DNA of 4,290 nucleotides, taken from positions 1 to 4,290 of IMG/VR virus record IMGVR_UViG_2740892230_000030; one strand, written 5' to 3'. How positions within the stretch are numbered: the first letter of the stretch is position 1; each line of letters starts with the position of its first letter. The notes below the pieces were generated by a model. It worked only from the letters and a program-made list of their open reading frames with translations, ran no database searches and had not been told where the DNA came from. Position numbers and translations under genes: made by a program. The stretch is from a virus. Taxonomy: Duplodnaviria > Heunggongvirae > Uroviricota > Caudoviricetes. Positions 1-4,290 of the stretch are shown piece by piece.

Positions 1-333
1 AGGCAGATAGCCTCAAGCACCCGCAGCAATTCTAACTATCCAATAGATCAATGCCAACTTCTTTTCCTGCAACATCTCTCATCATAAGTGACCCAAATTC
101 ATCCAATCAGCACAAAAGAAACATTTAAAGCGTGAATGCTACCGAACGTTCATTTCAATTACATCGTTTTGATTTTTAACAGTTTTCACCTCAACAAATC
201 AAATGGCATTAGCATTCATCATGGAAGAAAGACTGATAAAAATGATCATTTTCAATGACTTATGATCACACCGGGTATTGCCAAGTCATTCCTTTTACGC
301 CAGGATACCCACAAGTGAGTAGTCGAGGAGAGT

Positions 334-362
334 TTGCCAATTTTTGCGATATAAATTTCAAT
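334..362 (+). promoter_or_regulatory. Putative sigma70-like promoter for the 410..1507 CDS (TTGCCA at 334-339, 17-nt spacer, TTCAAT at 357-362)
   Basis: Read directly: -35-like hexamer with one mismatch to TTGACA, 17-nt spacer, -10-like hexamer matching TATAAT at 4 of 6 positions, about 50 nt upstream of the ATG. Weak -10; a guess only. Confidence 0.2.
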
Positions 363-409
363 GTCCGAAGAACCATTAATTGTTAATTGATTCTGTATAA
401 GGTATTAAC

Positions 410-1507
410 ATGACAATTTCATATATTCCTATTCTGAAAGCGAAACGTTCTGAGTTATCAGCTTTATCGCAGCTATCCATTGAAAAGAAATCAAAAATTT
501 TGCCATTACTCGAAATTGAACCAGTGCCAATTGACCCTGATTCAGGTATTGCCTTAAAGAGTTATAACGAGACTCTTATAGAGTTCGGAAAGAAAGTCTC
601 AAAATCTTGCTCAGATATGCAAGGTGTTTATATTGATGGATTATTAATTGAAGAGCATTTTATTTCTCCTGAAGATCATTACCCTATAATAAATGCGGTT
701 AATCAAGTTAGAGATATGGGGATAAGAGTTATTCCTGTCAGTTCACCAACTCGCCCATCTAACTATAAAAGAGCGATTGATGAATTAATGCAGAATGAAA
801 TATGCTTGAGATTAACCACGTTAGATCTGGTTAACCCACAATTAATAACGCATTACATTAATCATCTGGGAATTCCTTTATCAAATATTGATATAATTAT
901 TGACTTAAGAGATGAGTTAACCGAGGATAAAATTAATTCCGGCGAACTATATACTTTGGCAATGGGATTGATAAACAATCTGGCGCACCTCAATGAATAC
1001 AGAAAAGTGATTCTTTCTGGGGGTTCATTTCCTACAGATCTCAGTGATATTTCTGTTGGTCTATATTCTCAACCTCGAATCGAGTGGATTTTATGGCAGA
1101 GTTTAATGAATAGAAAAGAACTTGCCAGAAATGTGATTTATAGTGATTATGGAGTACAGCACCCCGACTTTAATAGGCTTTCGACGCGATTCCCTAGCGT
1201 ATCTGCCAGCGTCAGATACTCTGGAGATAATGACTTTTGGGTATTTCGAGGAAGAGTAGCTAATCGCTTTGGTTATGAACAATATGGTAAACATAGTGAG
1301 GATATTCTTGCTCATCGAGAATATTCAGGGCCTACATTCTGTGCGGGAGATAGAGACATAGAATATTATGCAAACGAGTATCAAGCCTACAAAGCCAATC
1401 CCTCTGGTAACTATAAATTTGGTAGCCCAGAGGTATGGCGTAGGATTGGGCAAAACCATCACATAACTAAGGTTGTTGAGCAACTCGCCACTCTTTACGG
1501 GCTTTAA
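410..1507 (+). CDS. 365-aa protein, putative 'beta protein' / sce7725-like family member (assignment from memory, unverified)
   Basis: Track ORF of 365 aa. ATG at 410 is preceded by AAGG (399-402) with a 7-nt spacer. The AT-rich composition is uniform across the ORF and no competing long ORF exists. The N-terminal motif YIPILKAKRSELSAL matches what I recall as the conserved N-terminus of the 'beta protein' family. High confidence that it is coding, low confidence in the family name. Confidence 0.8.
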   Translation: MTISYIPILKAKRSELSALSQLSIEKKSKILPLLEIEPVPIDPDSGIALKSYNETLIEFGKKVSKSCSDMQGVYIDGLLIEEHFISPEDHYPIINAVNQVRDMGIRVIPVSSPTRPSNYKRAIDELMQNEICLRLTTLDLVNPQLITHYINHLGIPLSNIDIIIDLRDELTEDKINSGELYTLAMGLINNLAHLNEYRKVILSGGSFPTDLSDISVGLYSQPRIEWILWQSLMNRKELARNVIYSDYGVQHPDFNRLSTRFPSVSASVRYSGDNDFWVFRGRVANRFGYEQYGKHSEDILAHREYSGPTFCAGDRDIEYYANEYQAYKANPSGNYKFGSPEVWRRIGQNHHITKVVEQLATLYGL

Positions 1508-2045
1508 GTTTAACTCGAACAGCTTCACGAAGCTCGCCAACATCCATACTATTGGCGAGTTTTGACCATAAGACGCGTTTAGGTTTATTTTTCAAATTCT
1601 GTAGCTCCCCTACATCACTTAATAGGGAAAGCAATTCATCTTTCCAAAGAAGCATTGTTAAGGAAAGTTTGTCCACTTGTGGATTCAACTTGCTAGTTCG
1701 AATTGTTTTTAAATGGATACCTTGCCGTGCACCTTGCGTAACTTGCTTTATCCCCCACCATGATGGAACTATGCTTAAAGCATCATAAAGATGGCAATCA
1801 GAGACAACCAAAGTTACTTTATCCATCACTGATGAGTAATGTTGCACCTGCGCTGGTAATCTGAGCAAGTTATCACTCTTGCTCTTCAACTCATAACCAT
1901 GTATAAGCCCATTGATCACTGCTATATCAGCTCTGCTAGCCCCTAGATTCATCGTAAACTCATCAATGATTAGGGTGTCAGGATCTTTATGATGATCTCT
2001 CAGAATCTTGGCATGCACAGCCTTTCTTACATCAATGTCTCTCAT
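1467..2045 (-). CDS. 192-aa PD-(D/E)xK-type nuclease-fold protein, possible sce7726-like partner of the upstream gene
   Basis: Track ORF of 192 aa. The N-terminal half contains the ordered motif set LIIDEF ... RADIAVI ... GYELKS, i.e. E, then D in a hydrophobic strand, then E-x-K, which is the canonical PD-(D/E)xK nuclease core. The Shine-Dalgarno is weak. It is convergent with the 410..1507 CDS and overlaps its 3' end by 41 nt. Confidence 0.75.
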   Translation of the reverse strand: MRDIDVRKAVHAKILRDHHKDPDTLIIDEFTMNLGASRADIAVINGLIHGYELKSKSDNLLRLPAQVQHYSSVMDKVTLVVSDCHLYDALSIVPSWWGIKQVTQGARQGIHLKTIRTSKLNPQVDKLSLTMLLWKDELLSLLSDVGELQNLKNKPKRVLWSKLANSMDVGELREAVRVKLKARKEWRVAQQP

Positions 2046-2077
2046 ACCATAGTTGCGCTTTCATCGACTCTCTCAAG

Positions 2078-2096
2078 CCATGATTCTATATCATGG
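2078..2096. promoter_or_regulatory. Perfect 7-5-7 inverted repeat (CCATGAT-tctat-ATCATGG), candidate operator upstream of the nuclease-like gene
   Basis: Read directly from the sequence. It lies 33-51 nt upstream of the ATG at 2045 on the minus strand, in the likely promoter region. Function is inferred from position only. Confidence 0.25.
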
Positions 2097-2222
2097 TTCG
2101 CATGAATGCCATTTGATATGACCAGTGGTTAAACATTGCACAGAAAAGTGGATGTGTATTTTAACAAAAGCAATGACGGCTAACCATGTTGGTATGTCGA
2201 TAAAATGTTTCAACGTAAGCAT
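2091..2222 (-). CDS. Possible 43-aa hydrophobic small protein (MLTLKHFIDIPTWLAVIAFVKIHIHF...)
   Basis: Internal ATG (2222..2220) of the 78-aa track ORF, immediately downstream of repeat copy 1. One hydrophobic stretch could be a single transmembrane helix. No strong ribosome-binding site. Speculative. Confidence 0.2.
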   Translation of the reverse strand: MLTLKHFIDIPTWLAVIAFVKIHIHFSVQCLTTGHIKWHSCEP

Positions 2223-2230
2223 TATCTGTT

Positions 2231-2303
2231 CCGCCCTTTCAGACGGTCTCCTGATGTTCTGAGGGTGCAGAATCCCTCCGGTTAAGGATTTAATAAAAAT
2301 CGT
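2231..2303. repeat. Direct repeat, copy 1 of a ~74-bp element (CCGCCCTTTC..GGTTAAGGATTTAATAAAAATCGT)
   Basis: Aligns to 2593..2666 with 3 differences (two substitutions and one 1-nt indel). It abuts the N-run at 2304-2313. Confidence 0.85.
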
Positions 2304-2313
2304 NNNNNNNNNN
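2304..2313. other. Run of 10 N (unresolved sequence)
   Basis: Literal N characters, located at the junction of a repeat and a paralogous gene. Confidence 1.
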
Positions 2314-2585
2314 GCAACCAGACACAAACCGGGCCATCTTCCGTATCATGAATGGAACCAATAAACCAGCCATCGCCCTCTGGTCGTTCCGGTTCCCATG
2401 CAGAAATANNNNNNNNNNTCCTCTTCGTCTTTTATTTCGTGGTATGAGTAATTGCAGTAGTTAAAGAAAATATCTTTAGCTTCATCCTGTATTTCATCTG
2501 GTGTTGCATCATCATCCACTTCGAATTCATCCTCGAAATCTCCACCGGCTATTCCCGTTTCAATAATTATTTTGAATTTTCGCAT
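2314..2585 (-). CDS. Very acidic small protein, paralog 1; interrupted by two N-runs, true length and frame unresolved
   Basis: ATG at 2585 opens a 55-codon highly acidic N-terminus (MRKFKIIIETGIAGGDFEDEFEVDDDATPDEIQDE...). Beyond the N-run at 2409-2418, the segment 2314-2408 encodes ISAWEPERPEGDGWFIGSIHDTEDGPVCVWL, near-identical to the C-terminus of the 2714..3025 protein. The two parts are out of phase across a 10-nt gap, so the N-run length is not real or the gene is disrupted. Confidence 0.5.
2409..2418. other. Run of 10 N (unresolved sequence)
   Basis: Literal N characters inside the acidic paralog 1 gene. Confidence 1.
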
Positions 2586-2592
2586 TTCACTA

Positions 2593-2666
2593 CCGCCCTT
2601 TCGGACGGCCTCCTGATGTTCTGAGGGTGCAGGAATCCCTCCGGTTAAGGATTTAATAAAAATCGT
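2593..2666. repeat. Direct repeat, copy 2 of the ~74-bp element
   Basis: Aligns to 2231..2303. It lies between the stop of the 2714..3025 CDS and the ATG at 2585. Confidence 0.85.
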
Positions 2667-2713
2667 TTCTGATTTAAATCTTCAGTATTTAGTTGTTAGT
2701 CGGTTTATAGCCT

Positions 2714-3025
2714 TTATGCTTCGGCCTTATTTCTCAGCCATACACAAACCGGGCCATCTTCGGTGTCATGTATTGAACCAATAAACCATCCATTGCCCTC
2801 TGGTCGTTCCGGTTCCCATGCAGAAATATCAGCATCACACGCATCAAGGTCAGCACATCCTTCATCTCTGAAGCAGAGGACGTATTGAAGATTATTTTCC
2901 TCCATCCAGGCGTTAAACTCTTCCGTTGAAATATATTCCCGACCGTCACAGAATTTTTCATATTCAGGATGCGTCCAGTAGCCATATTCATCACGTACTA
3001 CTGGTATTTCTTTAATTTCATTCAT
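2714..3025 (-). CDS. 103-aa very acidic small protein, paralog 2; function unknown, DNA-mimic or anti-defence role is speculation
   Basis: Track ORF of 103 aa with no N-run. By hand count about one residue in four is D or E and fewer than one in ten is K or R. The ATG overlaps the stop of the upstream 3018..3272 CDS (ATGAATGA), implying translational coupling. The C-terminal ~31 aa are shared with paralog 1. Confidence 0.7.
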   Translation of the reverse strand: MNEIKEIPVVRDEYGYWTHPEYEKFCDGREYISTEEFNAWMEENNLQYVLCFRDEGCADLDACDADISAWEPERPEGNGWFIGSIHDTEDGPVCVWLRNKAEA

Positions 3026-3272
3026 TTCTGTTCTCCCACGTTTTCAGACTTTCACCACAGAACGGACAAAATGAAACCCGAACTGGTAATTTAGAAAATT
3101 CACCGGAACGCAACATCACAAAATCAGGACCGCGAGTTAAACTCTCATTCCAGATTTTGTATATCAGCAGACCTTTTCGCATCGTGTATTCAGCATCATG
3201 CTCAAGGGATTTTGCCAGGGTCGTACACGGTTCTATCTTGTTGCCATAAACCTGGCATTTTGATTTACCCAC
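3018..3272 (-). CDS. 84-aa small Cys-containing protein (Cys pairs C-x9-C and C-x2-C); possible zinc-ribbon-like protein
   Basis: Track ORF of 84 aa with a GTG start preceded by AGGAGG at about 7 nt. The start overlaps the stop of the methyltransferase-like CDS (GTGGGTAA). The first 21 aa (MGKSKCQVYGNKIEPCTTLAK) are duplicated at 3784..3846. Confidence 0.6.
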   Translation of the reverse strand: MGKSKCQVYGNKIEPCTTLAKSLEHDAEYTMRKGLLIYKIWNESLTRGPDFVMLRSGEFSKLPVRVSFCPFCGESLKTWENRNE

Positions 3273-3753
3273 TGGTCGCCTCCTTCACAAAAATAATCCA
3301 ATGTGTTTTATCGTTCTTACCGGTGCGCTGGCTGATGATTGGTTTCGCGTCGGTTAGTGCCAATATCTGGCGGACAGATATTTGCGTTTCATTCCATTTA
3401 AAAATCAGAACGCCATGTGGCCACAACACACGAAAAGCTTCTTTAAATCCCTGCCGCAAATCATCACGCCAGGTATCTTTATTCAACCGTCCATATTTCT
3501 TTCCCATCCAGGCTTTATCACCAACACACTCAAGATGCGGAGGGTCGAATACAACAACCGGAAACGATGCGTCTGCAAATGGTAATGCTCGAAAATCTGC
3601 TATCAGGTCAGGACTGATAATCAGGCGTCGTCCATCACACAATGTGTGCTCTTCTTTTCTGATATCGCTAAATATCGCCCGGTCGTCATTCTTATCGAAC
3701 CAGAACATACGGCTGCCACAGCACATATCAAGAATGGTTGCCGGTGCACTCAC
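3265..3753 (-). CDS. Small (~162 aa) SAM-dependent methyltransferase-like protein, amino-methyltransferase type, with no visible restriction partner
   Basis: Motifs in Rossmann-methyltransferase order: ILDMCCGS (motif I-like), AIFSDIR (acidic motif II-like), VVVFDPPH (motif IV, DPPY-like). The likely start is GTG at 3753, preceded by AGGAGG with a 7-nt spacer. The 193-aa track ORF 3265..3846 fuses this gene to an upstream small ORF across an N-run and should not be taken literally. Confidence 0.7.
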   Translation of the reverse strand: MSAPATILDMCCGSRMFWFDKNDDRAIFSDIRKEEHTLCDGRRLIISPDLIADFRALPFADASFPVVVFDPPHLECVGDKAWMGKKYGRLNKDTWRDDLRQGFKEAFRVLWPHGVLIFKWNETQISVRQILALTDAKPIISQRTGKNDKTHWIIFVKEATSG

Positions 3754-3773
3754 TGCGCTACCTCCTGAAAATT

Positions 3774-3783
3774 NNNNNNNNNN
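3774..3783. other. Run of 10 N (unresolved sequence)
   Basis: Literal N characters between the small-ORF paralog and the methyltransferase-like gene start. Confidence 1.
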
Positions 3784-3846
3784 CTTTGCCAGTGCTGCAC
3801 ATGGTTCTATCTTGTTGCCATTAACCTGGCATTTTGATTCACTCAC
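3784..3846 (-). CDS. 5' fragment (21 codons) of a paralog of the 84-aa Cys-containing protein; 3' part lost in the N-run
   Basis: GTG start at 3846 overlaps the stop of the upstream 55-codon-unit gene. The encoded MSESKCQVNGNKIEPCAALAK matches the N-terminus of the 3018..3272 protein at 17 of 21 positions. Confidence 0.45.
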
Positions 3847-4031
3847 CGCACCACCTCCTCAAAATTCCCCTGATAAAACGCCAGTACGCGCTGCATAACT
3901 TCGCTCTTCCGGCACTCGAGACAGATTATGTTCAGACGCCTGTCGTAGCGGCGTATTTCGCCATCTGGTAATGACCAGATAAGGTCCGGATCAACCGCAG
4001 ATGGTTTCTTCAGCTTTGCCCTTGAGAGTTT
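3843..4031 (-). CDS. Small protein, repeat unit B (…KLSRAKLKKPSAVDPDLIWSLPDGEIRRYDRRLNIICLECRKSEVMQRVLAFYQGNFEEVVR*); 5' end lies in the N-run
   Basis: My own translation of the minus strand from 4031 gives 62 codons then TGA at 3845..3843. No start codon is visible because the 5' end abuts the N-run at 4032-4041. Function unknown. Confidence 0.45.
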   Translation of the reverse strand, partial: KLSRAKLKKPSAVDPDLIWSLPDGEIRRYDRRLNIICLECRKSEVMQRVLAFYQGNFEEVVR

Positions 4032-4041
4032 NNNNNNNNNN
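4032..4041. other. Run of 10 N (unresolved sequence)
   Basis: Literal N characters exactly at the junction of the two 165-bp tandem units. Confidence 1.
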
Positions 4042-4206
4042 ACCCTGATAAAACGACAATATGCGCTGCATAACTTCGCTCTTCCGGCACTCGCGACAGA
4101 TTATGTTCTGACGCCTGTCGTAGCGACGTATTTCTCCGTCAGGTAATAGCCAGATAAGGTCCGGATCAACCACAGATGGTTTCTTCAGCTTTGCCCTTGA
4201 GAGTTT
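4042..4206 (-). CDS. Repeat unit A coding segment (KLSRAKLKKPSVVDPDLIWLLPDGEIRRYDRRQNIICRECRKSEVMQRILSFYQG), bounded on both sides by N-runs
   Basis: Open frame of 55 codons, paralogous to unit B. Start and stop are not visible. Confidence 0.4.
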
Positions 4207-4216
4207 NNNNNNNNNN
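4207..4216. other. Run of 10 N (unresolved sequence)
   Basis: Literal N characters upstream of repeat unit A. Confidence 1.
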
Positions 4217-4290
4217 TTTACGAGCCTGTTCAGACGGGAATAACCCGTAGCCAGAATTGTATACATCGCCACTGGCAACCAGCTCTCTGG
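4217..4290 (-). CDS. Possible 3' portion of a minus-strand gene that begins beyond the window edge (…PESWLPVAMYTILATGYSRLNRLV…)
   Basis: The frame is open from the window edge to the N-run. The track ORF starts at TTG 4278, but the frame is also open upstream of it. Identity unknown. Confidence 0.25.

Follow-up and report, generated by a model that had tools for sequence, protein, structure and literature searches.

Proteins of the β family take part in two described anti-phage systems. The gop-β-cII genes of the satellite phage P4 protect Escherichia coli from λ and P1; when β is missing, Gop acts as a toxin (Rousset 2022, PMC9122126). The Gop-β-cII system of ECOR59 leads to cell death upon expression of the phage accessory gene orf184 (Silas 2023, bioRxiv 10.1101/2023.04.06.535777). 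In PD-λ-2, the toxicity of an Xre-peptidase is neutralised by a HigB-like protein, and the β homologue PD-λ-2C is dispensable for this neutralisation but required for defence against λvir (Vassallo 2022, PMC9519451). Both related systems have been described in publications as toxin-antitoxin (TA)-like (PMC9122126; PMC9519451; bioRxiv 10.1101/2023.04.06.535777). Here we analyse a stretch of 4,290 nucleotides from a Caudoviricetes record (IMG/VR IMGVR_UViG_2740892230_000030, positions 1 to 4,290; hereafter the window), in which a β-family gene (open reading frame 1, ORF1) converges with a cII-like gene (ORF2) that codes for a predicted nuclease. A previous examination of the letters alone (hereafter the sequence-only reading) had taken these genes for a candidate defence module, made of a nuclease and a protein of unknown function. 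They are the β/cII pair of P4, which that reading did not recognise, and the family is therefore less obscure than it had implied. Our literature search found no mechanism for either Gop-β-cII or PD-λ-2, no two-gene form, and no link between both systems. For sce7725, sce7726 and PF14350, the family names that apply to such genes, it returned genome-annotation mentions only, and the term 'Gop_beta_cll' had no match.

The two genes are present exactly as the sequence-only reading had described them. ORF1 occupies positions 410..1507 of the + strand and encodes 365 residues with the N-terminus MTISYIPILKAKRSELSAL; ORF2 faces it at 1467..2045 of the − strand and encodes 192 residues carrying LIIDEF, RADIAVI and GYELKS. 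ORF1 matches the Pfam family PF14350 Beta_protein over its full length (E 3.8e-52), as it does two PADLOC models of PD-Lambda-2_C (PDLC03983, 1.8e-41; PDLC03984, 1.7e-38), which fit far better than the PADLOC 'beta' model of P4 (2.1e-4). ORF1 had been named a 'beta protein' of the sce7725 type, and only the first half of this name stands: the NCBIfam model sce7725_fam (NF033831) reached 12.3 bits against a cut-off of 60 and covered only the N-terminal 35 residues. The proposed partner family, sce7726, was recovered over nearly all of ORF2 (NF033832 sce7726_fam, E 1.7e-56; 191.1 bits where the cut-off is 70; residues 1-184 of 192). With respect to the sce7725/sce7726 pair defined in NCBIfam, ORF2 is thus a full-length sce7726 member, whereas ORF1 fails the sce7725 model and belongs to the wider Beta_protein family. 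These family matches rule out that either gene is a chance ORF. ORF2 also matches the PADLOC 'cll' model (2.4e-28), and its homologues are precomputed as Pfam PF26915 'Phage_P4_cII'. Our local copy of Pfam gave no match for ORF2 or any of its 52 homologues, because PF26915 is newer than this copy. The ORF2 family is large, with about 5,400 clusters at 50% identity in many phyla and in phages, and the PHROGs entries for both families give the function as unknown.

The structure predicted for ORF2 agrees with the nuclease that had been proposed from its motifs. We used an alignment of 52 homologues (46-81% identity to ORF2) and an AlphaFold model with a predicted local distance difference test (pLDDT) score of 94.3. 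The residues put forward as catalytic, E29 (strand 25-32), D40 (strand 37-44) and E52-x-K54 (strand 48-54), lie on the first three core strands of the model and all four are invariant across the 52 sequences. The helix after these strands adds two more invariant residues, Q66 and Y70. The closest relative, by structure and by HHpred, is the MmcB-like repair family (3dnx, SPO1766 branch), followed by Can2, NucS and many type II restriction endonucleases. Foldseek gave weaker matches in the same direction. Model and Foldseek agree on a core that resembles solved PD-(D/E)xK nucleases, and in the model ORF2 shows this fold, at about residues 1-120, with its catalytic motif intact and invariant. 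A profile search of the PDB with the ORF2 family found no meaningful sequence relative among solved structures, and ORF2 differs from 3dnx, NucS, Can2 and the type II enzymes in having no detectable sequence similarity to any of them. Compared with these nucleases, it has an additional helical C-terminal part of about 70 residues, possibly SAP-like, and it is obligately paired with a TIM-barrel gene. The same kinship had been recorded for P4 cII, which is MmcB-like with 99.8% probability in the HHpred supplementary table of Rousset (PMC9122126).

ORF1 was modelled from an alignment of 35 sequences with a pLDDT of 92.2. The model shows a TIM barrel, that is, alternating β and α elements closed into a (β/α)8 barrel with conserved residues at the C-terminal ends of the strands. 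Six invariant polar residues (D76, R134, D165, R223, D246 and R269) are located at these strand ends or just past them. Active sites of TIM barrels are located at strand ends. Because of these invariant residues, β looks like an enzyme and not like a typical small antitoxin. Four residues, E15, D165, D246 and H351, are also found in P4 β. Structure comparison assigned no specific TIM-barrel chemistry to the protein, and a PDB profile search with its family revealed no meaningful sequence relative among solved structures.

The similarity to the P4 system concerns both the proteins and their layout. In BLASTP comparisons with the P4 sequence (M27748), ORF1 is 23% identical to β (E 1e-8), ORF2 shares 28% identity (E 2e-17) with cII over the first 160 residues of the latter, and an alignment inspected by eye shows that the E, D and ExK residues of ORF2 are also found in P4 cII. 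In P4, gop and β are co-directional and cII faces them (M27748); the window shares the convergent orientation of β and cII and, like P4, carries them on a mobile element. There are also clear differences. P4 Gop, the toxic component with two transmembrane segments, has no counterpart in the window, where none of the ORFs tested gave a PADLOC match to it and the biggest ORF 5' of β has 43 residues. ORF2, with 192 residues against 264 for P4 cII, lacks the C-terminal extension of the latter, and the window genes overlap by 41 nucleotides whereas those of P4 are 27 nucleotides apart and separated by an annotated terminator. As for PD-λ-2, component C is what ORF1 matches best (PD-Lambda-2_C, 1.8e-41). 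No ORF like components A (HigB-like) and B (Xre helix-turn-helix and peptidase) was found 5' of position 410, where the small upstream ORFs have no PADLOC match. PD-λ-2 as published has three genes and lists no cII-like nuclease. The clone that gave defence reached only about 396 nucleotides past gene C, which is too short for a complete cII-like gene.

To place the pair in a broader context, we scanned one genome per GTDB species. A relative of ORF2 is encoded in 391 genomes, and we examined the best 80 loci, which come from Proteobacteria, Myxococcota, Acidobacteriota, Firmicutes, Actinobacteria, Chloroflexota, bacteria of the candidate phyla radiation, and others. In 77 of these best 80 loci, a β-family gene lies directly downstream of the nuclease gene and converges with it. 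Two of the three loci without β end at a contig edge, so that the pairing amounts to 77 of 78 assessable loci. The sole assessable exception is L013 (Xenorhabdus koppenhoeferi, 6001-7807), in which the nuclease gene is followed by co-directional ORFs resembling a fragment of a Ser/Thr kinase and a PP2C-type phosphatase. When we started from β and searched viral contigs, a convergent cII-like gene was found at 42 of 43 loci, and at the lone unpaired one β is rearranged and split. The same arrangement occurs in phages of Gordonia, Mycobacterium and Myxococcus. The expectation that the two genes should co-occur in other genomes was therefore confirmed in both collections. A few loci keep an intact nuclease gene next to a damaged partner: β is cut down to its C-terminal third in L060 and L137, and split by a rearrangement in L124. 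In these three cases, the β remnant that is kept is always the portion overlapping the nuclease gene. Since four loci, including L013, have an intact nuclease gene without a full β, the nuclease alone does not appear to be lethal.

We then clustered all the flanking ORFs of these loci in search of shared third genes. A single family was common to different lineages, an Xre-type helix-turn-helix protein of about 411 residues, which is found directly 5' of β and co-directional with it in 15 of the 77 loci (L022, L042, L045, L047, L057, L072, L074, L075, L077 and L079-L084). A HigB-like ORF of about 95 residues lies further upstream in 9 of these 15. Among the called genes of two genomes (L088 and L094), we found Pfam Peptidase_M78 in both and HigB_toxin in L088 at the corresponding positions, which confirms this arrangement. 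The Xre loci are PD-λ-2 A-B-C with a convergent nuclease gene that falls outside the published three-gene definition. When the window and all loci were translated in six frames and searched with P4 Gop (phmmer), no homologue was found outside P4. In at least 31 of the 77 loci, neither flank carries a tightly coupled ORF. Given that Gop is restricted to P4, that the Xre-peptidase is present in 15 of 77 loci, and that at least 31 loci are bare, the β/cII-like pair is the conserved core, and Gop and the HigB/Xre-peptidase genes are lineage-specific. The window carries the bare core. We also built a profile of the β proteins from the four-gene type and looked for a cII-like neighbour in the PD-λ-2 of ECOR42, but no E. 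coli protein was among the top 120 matches. The other β homologue of E. coli, P0123, belongs to another locus with the pair only.

The two genes also overlap at their 3' ends, which the sequence-only reading had not mentioned. In the window, as read from the sequence, positions 1467-1507 (41 nucleotides) code on both strands, β ending in ...TKVVEQLATLYGL and its stop (+) and the nuclease in ...LKARKEWRVAQQP and its stop (−), with codon positions facing each other 1:1, 2:3 and 3:2. Such an overlap exists in 75 of the 77 genome loci (11-158 nucleotides, median 53), and none of the 42 paired viral loci lacks it (42/43 viral loci overall). Its length is 2 mod 3 in every one of the 117 overlapping pairs, and the register is therefore always the same. 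Moreover, conserved and profile-aligned parts of both C-terminal cores are encoded by the same nucleotides in 70 of 77 loci (median 20 nucleotides). Most simply, these data can be explained by an ancestral overlap that has seldom been lost. P4 did lose it, and has instead the 27-nucleotide gap and the annotated terminator between β and cII (GenBank M27748). No terminator-like hairpin was found in or near the overlap of the window, whose folding is no better than that of shuffled sequence (z about −1.4). In the absence of such a structure, each transcript should run into the other gene. A mutation of the P4 cII terminator, studied by Ghisotti et al. in 1990, reportedly has a phenotype that was attributed to lower β expression, a result that would show directly that transcription in convergent directions is important. 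The nearly universal dual-coding overlap is an unusual feature with a putative regulatory role that can be tested.

The window is DNA of a Rac-like lambdoid prophage of E. coli. The region of the pair is 99.8% identical to phage Rac-SA53, and the two genes are flanked by hok (hok/mok in Rac-SA53) and the Q antiterminator on one side and by replication and nin-like genes on the opposite side. The annotation of Rac-SA53 names them 'beta' and 'CII phage-like protein', and that of RefSeq 'beta family protein' and 'sce7726 family protein'. The 'AT-rich island' of the sequence-only reading does correspond to a lower GC content (0.383 for the pair against 0.446 for the remaining window rightward of it), but the effect is only modest. 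Among 5,426 complete E. coli genomes, 93 have the pair, which is intact every time and at least 97.9% identical, and parts of the neighbouring prophage DNA are found in more than 4,000. This difference indicates that the pair is optional cargo and not core phage machinery. Its positions in other elements are varied. In E. coli, it occupies three different slots of mobile elements, which are the nin-like region of Rac-like prophages seen in the window, the interval between the lysis genes and the terminase of another lambdoid prophage, and an island with integrase and resolvase. In Dickeya, a P2-like prophage carries it in the interval from portal to gpA, adjoining HicAB; in P2 this interval is the gpA-gpQ defence hotspot that holds old and tin (Rousset 2022, PMC9122126). 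A genome of Pyrinomonadaceae has it beside a type III restriction-modification (R-M) system and HigB/Peptidase_M78. We also found it close to type II R-M genes in Acinetobacter, adjoining the integrase at the end of a Vibrio prophage, and near integrase, immunity genes and HicAB in the Gordonia phage Powerball.

Considering all these results, we regard the pair as a two-gene anti-phage module carried by a prophage, and give this reading a probability of about one half. Infection would be sensed through a protein that the invading phage produces, in line with what has been reported for Gop-β-cII, and the nuclease would be the effector, cutting DNA after sensing. The β protein may not be a simple antidote but may act alongside the nuclease, be it as sensor, as gate or as co-enzyme. 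The outcome would be abortive infection or direct destruction of phage DNA, and the population of lysogens would be shielded from superinfecting phages. Convergent overlapping transcription may couple the expression of both genes, with the read-through of one damping the other. The sequence-only reading had also favoured defence, and it is supported by the nuclease fold, by the co-occurrence of the two genes and by the membership of both families in validated anti-phage systems (PADLOC 'cll' and PD-Lambda-2_C). For the two-gene form, working without Gop or HigB/Xre-peptidase, we infer defence from homology and context. Several points weigh against this reading. Anti-phage activity or triggered cell death of the Gop-β-cII type is known only from the three-gene loci of P4 and ECOR59. 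The toxicity demonstrated in the relatives comes from parts that the window does not have (P4 Gop and the PD-λ-2 Xre-peptidase), and since gop, A and B are missing neither PADLOC system is complete there. Systems with β may work without the nuclease, since the PD-λ-2 clone that gives defence probably lacks a complete cII-like gene, and the TIM barrel could itself be the effector.

The last two points lead to the main rival, which is possible though unlikely. Here the PD-(D/E)xK/SAP-like protein would sense phage DNA or a DNA structure and activate β, which would be an effector enzyme that breaks down or produces a small molecule or alters a macromolecule, so that the cell is arrested. Besides the truncated clone, this explanation draws on the fact that β is the component required for defence in PD-λ-2 (PMC9519451), on the conserved and enzyme-like pocket of β, and on the four loci where the intact nuclease sits beside an absent or truncated β (L013, L060, L124 and L137). 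However, the catalytic residues of the nuclease are invariant in 52/52 homologues and, by eye, kept in P4 cII, which is unexpected for a pure sensor, and no specific TIM-barrel chemistry can be assigned to the supposed effector.

A more speculative proposal, to which we give little weight, goes further. The β/cII-like pair would be a self-sufficient immune module of two enzymes that predates both described systems and underlies them, with Gop and HigB/Xre-peptidase as later bolt-ons. The duplex formed by the convergent transcripts across the overlap would set the ratio of β to nuclease, any phage disturbing transcription or RNA decay in its host would upset this balance and free the nuclease, and the chemistry of β would be new to immunity.

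Plain addiction comes next, and is rather improbable. In this explanation, β would be the antitoxin of a constitutively toxic nuclease, and the main role of the pair would be to stabilise the prophage rather than to defend against phages. It is in line with the neutralisation of Gop by β in P4 (PMC9122126), with the TA-like description of both related systems, and with the HicAB or hok modules that are common neighbours of the pair. Yet the four loci named above keep an intact nuclease ORF while β is absent or truncated, although this small sample is not decisive. A TIM barrel of 365 residues with conserved residues of catalytic type differs from known proteic antitoxins, and the convergent layout is atypical of type II TA operons.

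The two other explanations are less likely. It is decidedly doubtful that the pair works like an R-M system, with β modifying self DNA, for which DpdA and other TIM-barrel DNA transglycosylases offer a precedent, and with incoming DNA being cut by the nuclease if it is unmodified. Dozens of unrelated TIM barrels score at least as well as TGT and DpdA do; Gop-β-cII acts as triggered cell death and not as restriction (bioRxiv 10.1101/2023.04.06.535777); the four loci tolerate an intact nuclease without β, unlike an unprotected restriction enzyme; and the partnership of β with a membrane toxin and with a peptidase system is a poor fit for a DNA modifier. Finally, it is very improbable that the pair does housekeeping on the phage's own DNA, like RusA, NinG and NinB, by means of an MmcB-like nuclease for repair or recombination and a partner protein. 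The nearest structural and HHpred relative is indeed the MmcB-like repair family, and the pair lies in a nin-like region; one related prophage has a RusA gene close to it. However, within E. coli this pair is found in three slots that are unrelated to each other, and it is present in non-phage islands beside R-M systems. It is also far rarer (93 of 5,426 complete genomes) than the surrounding prophage DNA (more than 4,000), and has homologous systems with demonstrated anti-phage activity (PMC9519451, PMC9122126).

A weak candidate for a sigma-70-like promoter lies 5' of the nuclease gene (2083..2112, − strand; ATGGCA, an 18-nucleotide spacer and TAGAAT; 9 of 12 consensus positions), and a consensus scan found promoter-like matches in the region no more frequent than in shuffled sequence. 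Rac-SA53 has an IS1 inserted just 5' of the nuclease gene (L001 9912-10677, about window 2100-2300), an insertion that the window does not have. Because this IS1 is directly upstream of the gene, any promoter of the nuclease may be disrupted there. An Rfam scan of the window revealed no known RNA. Rightward of the pair, small prophage ORFs of the − strand encode a DUF7167 protein (2346-2585, E 2.6e-14) and a rac22-like protein (2714-3025, phrog_1372), and a partial DUF977 ORF is found at the window edge (3991-4278, −). Two neighbouring ORFs, 3018-3272 (−) and 3265-3846 (−), have near-identical first 20 residues (MGKSKCQVYGNKIEPCTTLAKS and MSESKCQVNGNKIEPCAALAK), and the latter encodes a small DNA methyltransferase (PADLOC MTase_II, 4.3e-71; phrog_954). 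The best E. coli matches span only 83% of the window, since the methyltransferase is missing from most otherwise near-identical prophages. This gene looks like a module exchanged by recombination at the common 5' sequence. A link between the pair and this adjacent gene was rejected, as most prophages bearing the pair lack the methyltransferase. Five runs of exactly 10 N (2304-2313, 2409-2418, 3774-3783, 4032-4041 and 4207-4216) break several ORFs right of the pair and are seen as XXXX in their translations. In related records, hok/mok lies just left of the window.

Both families and their link to defence were previously known, a published supplement reports P4 cII to be nuclease-like, and NCBIfam records the sce7725/sce7726 pairing. 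Four aspects appear to be undescribed so far: that Gop-β-cII and PD-λ-2 have the β/cII-like pair as their common core, that this pair is commonest and most widespread in its bare form, that β is a predicted TIM barrel with an enzyme-like pocket, and that the dual-coding overlap is phase-locked across phyla. Gop-β-cII and PD-λ-2 are catalogued separately, but our data point to one widespread family with a core made of a nuclease and a TIM barrel. Its commonest architecture is the two-gene form, which current three-gene definitions would miss. The locus is a convenient minimal system for an open mechanism and not a new category of system. With two proteins and clear catalytic residues, the two-gene version in a well-studied E. 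coli prophage offers the simplest handle on how this family works.

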